IMG/VR virus record: IMGVR_UViG_3300017763_000003
DNA length: 64,000 nucleotides
Source: a virus
Reading direction: 5' to 3' (one strand)
The translations under genes and the position numbers were made by a program. Below are positions 31,109-32,462 of the stretch, in pieces (the first letter of the stretch is position 1; the number at the start of each line of letters is the position of its first letter). The notes under the pieces are model-generated. The model had not been told where the DNA came from. It was given only the letters and a program-made list of their open reading frames with translations, and ran no database searches.

Positions 31109-31992
31109 CCACATATAAAATTAATTTTCGTATCAGATACTGGTGGTTCACCCAGTTGTGTCTGCTAGGAATCATTGTATTTGGAAGATGGGATCTAATA
31201 CCCTATGTTTTGGCATGGTGGTTTTTCGGAGCAATGGCTATCACAATATATGCGCACAGAAGTTTATCACATAATAGTATTACTGTAAAATGGAAATGGC
31301 TCGAACACTTCTTCTGCTCTCTTTGTATAGTAAGCAACATCGGAAGTCCACTAGCTTGGGCAGTAATACATCGGATGCACCATGTATATCTAGACGAGGA
31401 AAGGGATCCGCACAGTCCACATCAAATTGGTTTTTTAAGATCTTTAACTCATAGGTGGGATGTACCCTTTGAAAATGTACCACTAAGATTTACAAGAGGA
31501 TTACTGAGAAATAAAACTGCTAGATGGTATCACGATAATAGTTTTAAATCTATGTGTATTACTATATTTGGTGCTTACTTATTAATGTTGTTATGGGGAA
31601 TCATTGTAGAAACATATACAAATGGATTAGCAGTTATGCTACCAGAGTTGGGGTATTACTTAACACATTTTTATTGGTACGATGGTCCATACTTATACAT
31701 TCAAGAGTGGGGTATTAATTTTGCATGGGCAGCATTTGCTGGTGCAGGTCTCGGTCAATGGTCTATGGGTATAACTAACGCATGGCAACATAGTGACAAA
31801 CGAGGAAAACAACATATTCGTAATGTCCCATGGTATTTAAGTTTCATAAACTGGGGAGAAGGATCCCACGATTATCATCATTCTTATCCAAAGGACTTTA
31901 GTTTTGGTAAAGGATTAAACGATCCGACACAATATTTTATTCTTTTCTTAGAAAAGATTGGAGCAGTGAATATAAATAAAGTTAGAGGTTAA
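31045..31992 (+). CDS. membrane-bound fatty acid desaturase (delta-9 type); start uncertain
   Basis: His boxes HRSLSH, HRMHH, HDYHH; DPHSP; GEGSH; TM helices. Confidence 0.85.
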   Translation: MFTIGFQRLRDWLSNFREQHLTTYKINFRIRYWWFTQLCLLGIIVFGRWDLIPYVLAWWFFGAMAITIYAHRSLSHNSITVKWKWLEHFFCSLCIVSNIGSPLAWAVIHRMHHVYLDEERDPHSPHQIGFLRSLTHRWDVPFENVPLRFTRGLLRNKTARWYHDNSFKSMCITIFGAYLLMLLWGIIVETYTNGLAVMLPELGYYLTHFYWYDGPYLYIQEWGINFAWAAFAGAGLGQWSMGITNAWQHSDKRGKQHIRNVPWYLSFINWGEGSHDYHHSYPKDFSFGKGLNDPTQYFILFLEKIGAVNINKVRG

Positions 31993-32130
31993 GATTCGCA
32001 TGGTGAAAGCTACACATATTAGAAAATAAAGTAGCCACTTCACTGAGTTGCTTATTTCATAAGTTTAACTCCTCTATCTGAGAGTCATGCGTTCGGTTTT
32101 GGTAGTTTCCGAATTAACAAAAAACTACCA
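31983..32130 (+). ncRNA. candidate structured RNA with 3' H-type pseudoknot
   Basis: TATAAATA at 31971-31978; helices GTGAA/TTCAC, GCTAC/GTAGC, CTTAT/ATAAG, CGCATG/CATGCG; pseudoknot TTCGG/CCGAA plus TGGTAGTTT/AAACTACCA. Confidence 0.55.
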
Positions 32131-32162
32131 CTTGACTAACTTCCAATATGAAAGGATACACA

Positions 32163-32462
32163 ATGGAAGAATTGGTTTTTGAAATGGAAAGTGGCTTGGT
32201 TAATTATATCATAATTCTTACTTTTTCACTTTTATTTTTTATACTAGGATGGGCAATGCCAAGAGGTAGTGCCTTAAAAAGACTCCAAGGTAAAATCTTC
32301 AAAAGGTTTTATAATTGGACAGGAGCAGTAATGGTTAAGTTCCATAATTTCTTCGCTGATGAAGAATTTTATTTGGAGCATGTATGGCAAGATACTAAGG
32401 ACTATGTGCGTAAAAAATATGGATACGAAAAGAAAAAAACTAAAACTACGAAAAAGAAATAA
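32163..32462 (+). CDS. membrane-anchored hypothetical protein
   Basis: SD AAAGGA; one TM helix. Confidence 0.6.
   Translation: MEELVFEMESGLVNYIIILTFSLLFFILGWAMPRGSALKRLQGKIFKRFYNWTGAVMVKFHNFFADEEFYLEHVWQDTKDYVRKKYGYEKKKTKTTKKK

Follow-up and report, generated by a model that had tools for sequence, protein, structure and literature searches.

Within the window analysed here (the whole 64,000-nucleotide stretch from the IMG/VR virus record IMGVR_UViG_3300017763_000003), a membrane fatty-acid desaturase gene is separated from a small ORF by 170 nt, and this gap holds a structured RNA element. The element sits midway in an unusual phage module for fatty-acid synthesis and modification, whose flanking genes, encoding a FabI-like reductase, AcpS, the desaturase and, further on, a ketosynthase, are all on the + strand. 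The genes located 3' of the element encode a 99-aa membrane protein, two oxygenase-like proteins, a 93-aa protein and the ketosynthase. An initial annotation of this DNA had placed the RNA inside a lipid module, and the desaturase upstream and lipid-tailoring genes downstream bear this out. The landmarks around the element are:

31971..31978, + strand: TATAAATA box, a candidate T4-type late promoter, inside the last desaturase codons
31990-92, + strand: desaturase stop codon TAA
32131..32165, + strand: variable spacer, SD and start, with the conserved SD GAAAGGA at 32150-56 and ATG at 32163
32163-32462, + strand: gene for the 99-aa membrane protein, with its real start at ATG 32163

The 99-aa protein belongs to a family of 91-108 aa that has an N-terminal TM helix, then a strongly basic conserved domain (reading ..GWxMPRG..LKRIQGKIFKRFYNW..FFADEEFYLEH..) and a poly-Lys tail. 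Searches with it against Pfam, PHROG and Atlas matched no family. The family is small, with 8 clusters among 5.8 billion proteins, and all examined contigs that carry it show the context of this phage lineage (the desaturase and/or the downstream oxygenase-like gene). The source phage is an uncultured, distant T4-like marine myovirus that may be related to pelagimyophages. Its tail protein shares 32% identity with its counterpart in a Synechococcus phage and 26% with the one in the OM43 phage Melnitz. The desaturase matches the distant desaturase of Pelagibacter phage Mosig at 27% identity, and the intergenic RNA is absent from Mosig.

The element is ~135 nt long and is organized as a four-way junction followed by a pseudoknot, giving five helical elements plus the pseudoknot. 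The coordinates given for the helices and the box in the initial annotation all proved correct against the sequence. The parts of the RNA are:

31984..31996, + strand: single-stranded 5' lead, 13 nt in the window and 13-24 nt in homologues
31997..32091, + strand: four-way junction domain, closed by P1
31997-32002/32086-32091, + strand: P1, 6 bp in the window and 7 bp in homologues
32003..32043, + strand: P2 arm, with P2 at 32003-08/32038-43 (6 bp) and P2i at 32009-13/32031-35 (5 bp)
32045..32071, + strand: P3 arm, with the outer helix GAGUU/AACUC at 32045-49/32067-71 and an inner hairpin at 32050-66
32072..32084, + strand: P4 hairpin, CTCT/AGAG at 32072-75/32081-84 (4 bp), with its loop at 32076-80
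32092..32130, + strand: H-type pseudoknot, with S1 at 32092-96/32109-13 and S2 at 32100-08/32122-30
32097-99 and 32114-21, + strand: pseudoknot loops L1 (UUU) and A-rich L3

The 5' lead is partly conserved and AGAG(A)UU-like, and the junction linkers measure 0, 1 (U32044), 0 and 1 (U32085) nt. In the P2 arm, where the first reading had taken P2 as 32003-07/32039-43, the P2i strands are GCTAC/GTAGC, and a bulge of 2-3 nt on the 3' side ends in A in homologues and reads CA in the window. The terminal loop of this arm (32014-30) is 17-22 nt long across sequences and purine-rich. It reads ..AGAGAGCAAGCAA in 10 of 11 sequences; the window's version retains all helices and has this conserved loop swapped for an A/U-rich one.

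In an H-type pseudoknot the 3' strand of S1 lies inside the loop of S2, the two stems stack coaxially and the loops span the grooves. The predicted geometry here is that of a classical H-type pseudoknot, and it recurs in all eleven sequences analysed, with S1 of 4-5 bp, S2 of 8-9 bp, L1 of 2-3 nt, L2 of 0-1 nt and an A-rich L3 of 7-8 nt. The spacing from P1 to S1 is 0-2 nt. The length of L1 tracks that of S2, being 2 nt where S2 has 8 bp (L006, L001 and L008) and 3 nt where it has 9 bp, a coupling consistent with the steric constraints on a loop that crosses the deep groove. RNAfold reproduced the multibranch fold and the S2 hairpin on the window RNA (MFE -35.6 kcal/mol, z = -2.4), and 4 of 200 shuffles folded as well. 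The minus strand gave z = -3.2 and an MFE equal to or slightly lower than that of the plus strand. With this z-score, and with a minus strand that folds at least as well, the thermodynamic evidence alone is modest.

The initial annotation had proposed a + strand structured RNA with an H-type pseudoknot at its 3' end, to be checked by covariation among homologues and by an Rfam search. Homologues were sought by a search anchored on proteins, with the desaturase and the downstream genes as queries against IMG/VR, JGI and ENA metagenomes and Logan assemblies. The related marine phage contigs recovered carry twelve distinct versions of the element, all in the same position and with flanks identical in kind (the desaturase gene and the 99-aa membrane-protein gene). 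Eleven of the twelve, parsed by segment lengths, were analysed in detail. Folded singly, the homologues share one architecture. Two independent samples contain the window's version without a single difference, so it is not an assembly artefact.

Compensatory double changes were found at 20 of the 41 helix positions in the eleven marine phage sequences, with both pseudoknot stems included. A total of 447 helix cells carry letters: 430 (96%) are Watson-Crick pairs, 4 are G-U, 1 is A-C, and the remaining 12 lie at terminal positions of P4 and S1. P1 is compensatory at 6 of 7 positions with no mismatch, and three lineages have replaced 4, 6 and 2-3 of its positions. Compensatory changes also affect P2 (5 of 6 positions, in eight different complementary versions), P4 (3 of 4) and P2i (1 of 5). 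The outer helix of P3 has the same letters in 11 of 11 sequences, and the inner hairpin totals 10-11 bp in every sequence, with differing letters and 13 G-U pairs. S2 shows two independent compensatory positions, one changing from G-C to A-U in L008 and the other from A-U to G-C in L035 and L001; apart from this last change L035 is nearly identical to L002. The letters of S1 are UUCGG/CCGAA in the window against (A)GCAG/CUGC(U) in all others; 3 of 5 pairs are changed on both sides, and the strands stay complementary throughout. These changes reflect one lineage split only, which makes S1 the helix with the weakest support.

In an alignment fitted to the structural model, 93.8% of cells are paired compared with 81.7% in shuffles, and 24 pairs are changed on both sides compared with 10.8 expected; none of 500 shuffles reached the observed values, and pairing fell to 32-50% when partners were slid. 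Since this first alignment was fitted to the structure, we added RNAalifold on a plain, structure-blind MAFFT alignment, which recovered P1, P2, P2i, P4 and S2 with 17 compensatory pairs. Together, the results confirm that the element is a genuine, conserved structured RNA. Adding the 4 G-U pairs of the main helices to the 13 in the P3 hairpins, G-U outnumbers A-C by 17 to 1. The plus strand is favoured by this asymmetry, as G-U pairs would be mismatches on the other strand, and the orientation of the neighbouring genes and the upstream box agree; the lower minus-strand MFE carries little weight against it. The strand assignment of the initial annotation is thus upheld, as is its 3' pseudoknot, in which both stems covary.

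Three further features of that annotation fared less well. A helix proposed to compete with the fold (31983-92/32065-76) does occur in the window, but the homologues retain no counterpart at a constant position, and the full-leader MFE keeps the core fold in 10 of 12 homologues. The suggestion of a tRNA-like mimic or tmRNA piece was not borne out: an ARAGORN scan of the window found no tRNA and no tmRNA, the terminal ACCA is paired within S2, and it reads AUCA in one lineage (L008). The ATG of the 9-codon ORF, at 32000, falls within a fast-changing P1 strand that is rewritten in every other lineage, and so this ORF is confined to the window.

The Rfam search matched no family. Rfam 15 at gathering thresholds gave no match in the window, and relaxing the cutoff to E <= 10 gave only two snoRNA chance matches; six homologue loci searched at E <= 5 produced one chance match to a frameshift element (17 bits against a threshold of 70). 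The models manA (RF01745) and wcaG (RF01761) matched neither the window nor the homologue loci even at permissive E-values. Nucleotide searches of GenBank phages with the window version and the commonest version found nothing similar. A covariance model finds a single copy per related phage genome, and a strict motif pattern run on IMG/VR returned the same contigs only. A loose pattern (P3 plus pseudoknot) picked up 12 extra stretches in IMG/VR and 45 from 185,579 prokaryotic genomes; all were negative with the covariance model and are therefore chance matches. The view that the element is a new, narrowly distributed orphan RNA family is well supported. It may be among the 8,495 unnamed automatic candidate structured RNAs drawn from IMG/VR intergenic regions on covariation evidence (PMC10690425), a catalogue that shares both source and type of evidence with the present analysis and whose main text mentions neither desaturase nor fatty acids.

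The region around the RNA is a recombination mosaic with breakpoints flanking the element (window positions 31500-32460 compared with L001, L002, L004, L007 and L031). Nucleotide identities of the desaturase 3' part, the RNA and the small ORF are 91/71/75 between the window and L001, 68/69/92 between L001 and L031, and 98/90/54 between L002 and L004. In the commonest RNA type, the RNA shows 82-92% nt identity compared with mostly 46-78% for flanking coding DNA, the flanking genes reaching 90-98% in the closest pairs only. There are thus four deep lineages of the RNA, and within a lineage the RNA is under stronger sequence constraint than the neighbouring genes.

The late-promoter box that the initial annotation had seen ahead of the RNA also survives comparison: the late-promoter-like TATAAATA is invariant in 11 of 11 homologues, whereas the overlapping C-terminal codons of the desaturase vary, as does its stop codon (TAA, TAG or TGA). 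The predicted +1 of this box lies near 31984. The box is not enriched in the window (4 found versus 9.1 expected), and its support comes from invariance across homologues, not from frequency. A T4-type late promoter works with the phage gp55 sigma factor and the gp45 sliding clamp. Homologues of both occur in the related contigs G001 (131 kb) and G002 (117 kb), with E-values of 2e-22 and 8e-21 for gp55 and 3e-29 and 1e-30 for gp45; the window lies outside these genes. Their positions are:

gp55 homologue: G001:C1 ~50106 (orientation used here); G002:C1 ~35094
gp45 homologue: G001 ~61408; G002 ~46973

The presence of both genes confirms that this uncultured lineage has T4-type late transcription machinery, and, with gp55 and gp45 encoded by relatives, late transcription from 31971-78 is plausible. 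Methods developed for cyanophage late promoters failed on pelagimyophages (PMC7029224).

A related box, CTAAATA (or ATAAATA), is ~7-fold enriched just upstream of gene starts in the window, with 11 of 27 occurrences within 60 nt of a gene start compared with 5.6% expected. Such boxes lie at:

16677, 19446, 23290, 34531, 40440 and 59341, + strand: CTAAATA/ATAAATA boxes
56250, 58878 and 59370, - strand: CTAAATA/ATAAATA boxes

Most are 4-7 nt before an ATG, and the pattern is repeated in G001 and G002. If these are T4-type late promoters, with +1 about 6 nt after the box, the corresponding late mRNAs would be leaderless or nearly leaderless. A ~180-nt structured leader with a canonical SD would then stand apart from the other apparent late transcripts of this phage, and it is probably purposeful, given that the other late-type boxes stand only 4-7 nt before ATG.

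We examined the region between the box and the start codon for switch elements. No intrinsic terminator was found between the pseudoknot and the downstream gene, and the homologue leaders contain no expression platform in the form of a terminator or a conserved SD-sequestering or alternative helix. The SD is mostly unpaired in predicted ensembles, and the spacer from pseudoknot to SD is 7-20 nt among homologues. P3, S2, L1 and L3 count as invariant, and the P2 loop is invariant in 10 of 11 sequences. Judged by its sequence, the element thus appears to combine the aptamer-like fold of a riboswitch with the lack of an expression platform.

Between the desaturase stop and P1 the lead is conserved as ..AUGUUCCAG(AGAUUG/UUUA), for example at L004:3940-3959. 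Pairing of the lead with the SD was rejected as a platform, as it is seen in one lead/RBS combination, is broken in mosaic combinations and lacks covariation. In four lineages only, the lead AGAGAUUG can pair with GCAGUUUU (S1a plus L1) to form a helix, P0. This pairing would exclude the pseudoknot since it occupies S1a plus L1. P0 was likewise discarded as a platform, on account of its restriction to four lineages and pairing without covariation. Two tertiary motifs were also rejected: a kissing interaction between the P3 and P4 loops (UCGG/CCGA), available in a subset of sequences only, and a K-turn in P2, where no G-A pairs follow the bulge.

What the element does we infer only from its position, its conservation, the absent terminator and the leader length. 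Our preferred reading, held tentatively, is that it acts in cis, as a structured leader through which late expression of the lipid-tailoring operon downstream is controlled. Transcription would start at the conserved TATAAATA box, probably alongside read-through transcripts, and the element would form the first ~150 nt of the operon mRNA. The end of the pseudoknot, 7-20 nt before the SD, would lie inside the 30S landing zone. A ligand, protein or physical cue would modulate the folded state of the pseudoknot or junction, and this state may set the translation efficiency of the operon or the lifetime of its mRNA.

A cis-acting leader fits best because of the fixed position 5' of the SD, the absence of a terminator, a pseudoknot in the ribosome zone, the leader length and the aptamer-like conservation. 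The fold is proven by covariation and has the orientation of the neighbouring genes, with the + strand favoured. It always stands immediately 5' of the same gene and is followed by a conserved SD, although this synteny says little, as all copies come from one phage lineage. The box is invariant across variable codons in a lineage whose relatives encode gp55 and gp45, and the leader is exceptionally long compared with the usual 4-7 nt. Within the main sequence type the RNA is better conserved than flanking coding DNA, and the invariance of P3, S2 and the P2 loop suggests constraint beyond base pairing, as in aptamers and protein-binding sites. A precedent exists in manA and wcaG of T4-like marine phages (PMC2864571). 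Against this reading stand the missing conserved expression platform, a junction almost without unpaired nucleotides for a ligand pocket, and the loss of the conserved purine-loop sequence from the window's copy.

The absent platform and the few junction nucleotides disfavour a conventional riboswitch, and they keep alive the main rival, a processed stable RNA that acts in trans or is bound by protein, which we consider somewhat unlikely. Cleavage within the A/U-rich spacer would free such an RNA from the late transcript; its 3' pseudoknot would block 3' exonucleases and its 20-nt purine-rich P2 loop would offer a binding surface. One possibility is that it forms an RNP with the small basic membrane protein encoded next to it, like OLE RNA with OapA. 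The fold is compact and autonomous and carries a pseudoknot at the 3' edge, which suits this role, as do the conserved large single-stranded loop and a neighbouring protein in which a TM helix precedes a strongly basic domain and tail. However, terminator and conserved processing signal are both absent, the SD of the next gene is just 7 nt away in several lineages, and the loop sequence is absent from the window's version. A search for duplexes between the P2 loop and trans targets, covering both strands of three genomes that between them carry three variants of the loop, also found no sense-strand site at orthologous positions; the best matches were antisense to purine-rich coding DNA. Rather less probable is a passive module for intercistronic processing or stability that involves no sensing and would protect the 3' end of the desaturase message after endonuclease cleavage, or form a decay barrier between the halves of the lipid module. 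Pseudoknots and multi-helix junctions do impede exonucleases, the element lies between two cistrons in a long same-strand gene array, and switch elements were not found. Yet a simple hairpin would suffice for such a purpose, the invariance of P3, S2 and the loops and the above-flank conservation point to specific recognition, and an unpaired 5' lead of 13-24 nt argues against a role as 5'-end protector.

A self-cleaving ribozyme or other catalytic RNA that separates the cistrons is very improbable. Phage and marine metagenomes commonly contain several ribozyme classes, and the size and complexity of the element fall within the range of small ribozymes; but no Rfam ribozyme model matched even at E <= 10, inspection revealed no hammerhead, twister, pistol or hatchet core sequence, and the bulge and junction sequences are not conserved. 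Least credible of all, to the point of being negligible, is a DNA-level element (a cruciform, or a recombination or replication site) or a chance fold. The equal or slightly better folding of the minus strand and the mosaic breakpoints around the element would agree with it, against which stand the excess of G-U over A-C and a pseudoknot with covarying stems, which is an RNA-level feature; the compensatory changes, together with the failure of any of the 500 shuffles to reach the observed values, exclude a chance fold.

The element has parallels among known RNAs, each of them partial. The pseudoknot in the T4 gene 32 mRNA leader is an operator of translational autoregulation, in which the folded pseudoknot nucleates protein binding. 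Like it, the present element places an H-type pseudoknot shortly 5' of a ribosome-binding site in a T4-type phage; unlike it, the pseudoknot is fused to a 95-nt four-way junction, and the downstream gene encodes a small membrane protein rather than an ssDNA-binding protein. EAR (eps-associated RNA), a Bacillales element that acts on the host RNA polymerase, is similar in several ways: it is ~120 nt long, combines multiple helices with a pseudoknot, and lies between genes within a long biosynthetic operon, not at the operon's start. In contrast, the present element has no Rfam match, and downstream terminators that would need read-through were not identified. OLE RNA, which is ~600 nt long, occurs in Firmicutes and has the membrane protein OapA as its partner, shares with our locus a structured RNA beside a small membrane protein with basic cytoplasmic residues. 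It differs in size and fold, and the association here is one of adjacency only.

In concept the element resembles both the gene 32 operator and manA and wcaG, which are riboswitch candidates found in the 5' UTRs of auxiliary metabolic genes that T4-like marine phages carry (PMC2864571). These two are orphan, covariation-supported RNAs that are nearly confined to marine metagenomes and have no known ligand (PMC2864571, Weinberg et al. 2010). In pelagimyophage genomes, Riboswitch Scanner found no known riboswitches (PMC7029224). The likeness to manA and wcaG is that of an orphan structured RNA located 5' of auxiliary metabolic genes in marine T4-like phage; the differences lie in sequence, structure, architecture, host group and gene class (here lipid tailoring), and in a far narrower distribution of the present element, with 12 distinct sequences in one phage lineage.

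Structured RNAs this complex and covariation-supported usually have a specific biochemical job. That the job here is that of a sensor RNA (a riboswitch or protein-responsive leader) gating a late phage lipid-tailoring operon, or of a membrane RNP that would be a miniature counterpart of OLE/OapA, is doubtful. We know of no earlier RNA regulator tied to lipid metabolism, and streamlined marine bacteria are thought to rely on RNA-based regulation; if the sensor reading is true, the element would be the first such regulator, and one from phages of streamlined marine bacteria. Unless a new effector emerges, the narrow distribution of the element restricts its general importance. The element is a defined RNA with which to probe ligands and partners in lipid remodelling during infection, and it offers a testable conserved promoter-like box and a small, well-delimited fold for structural work.
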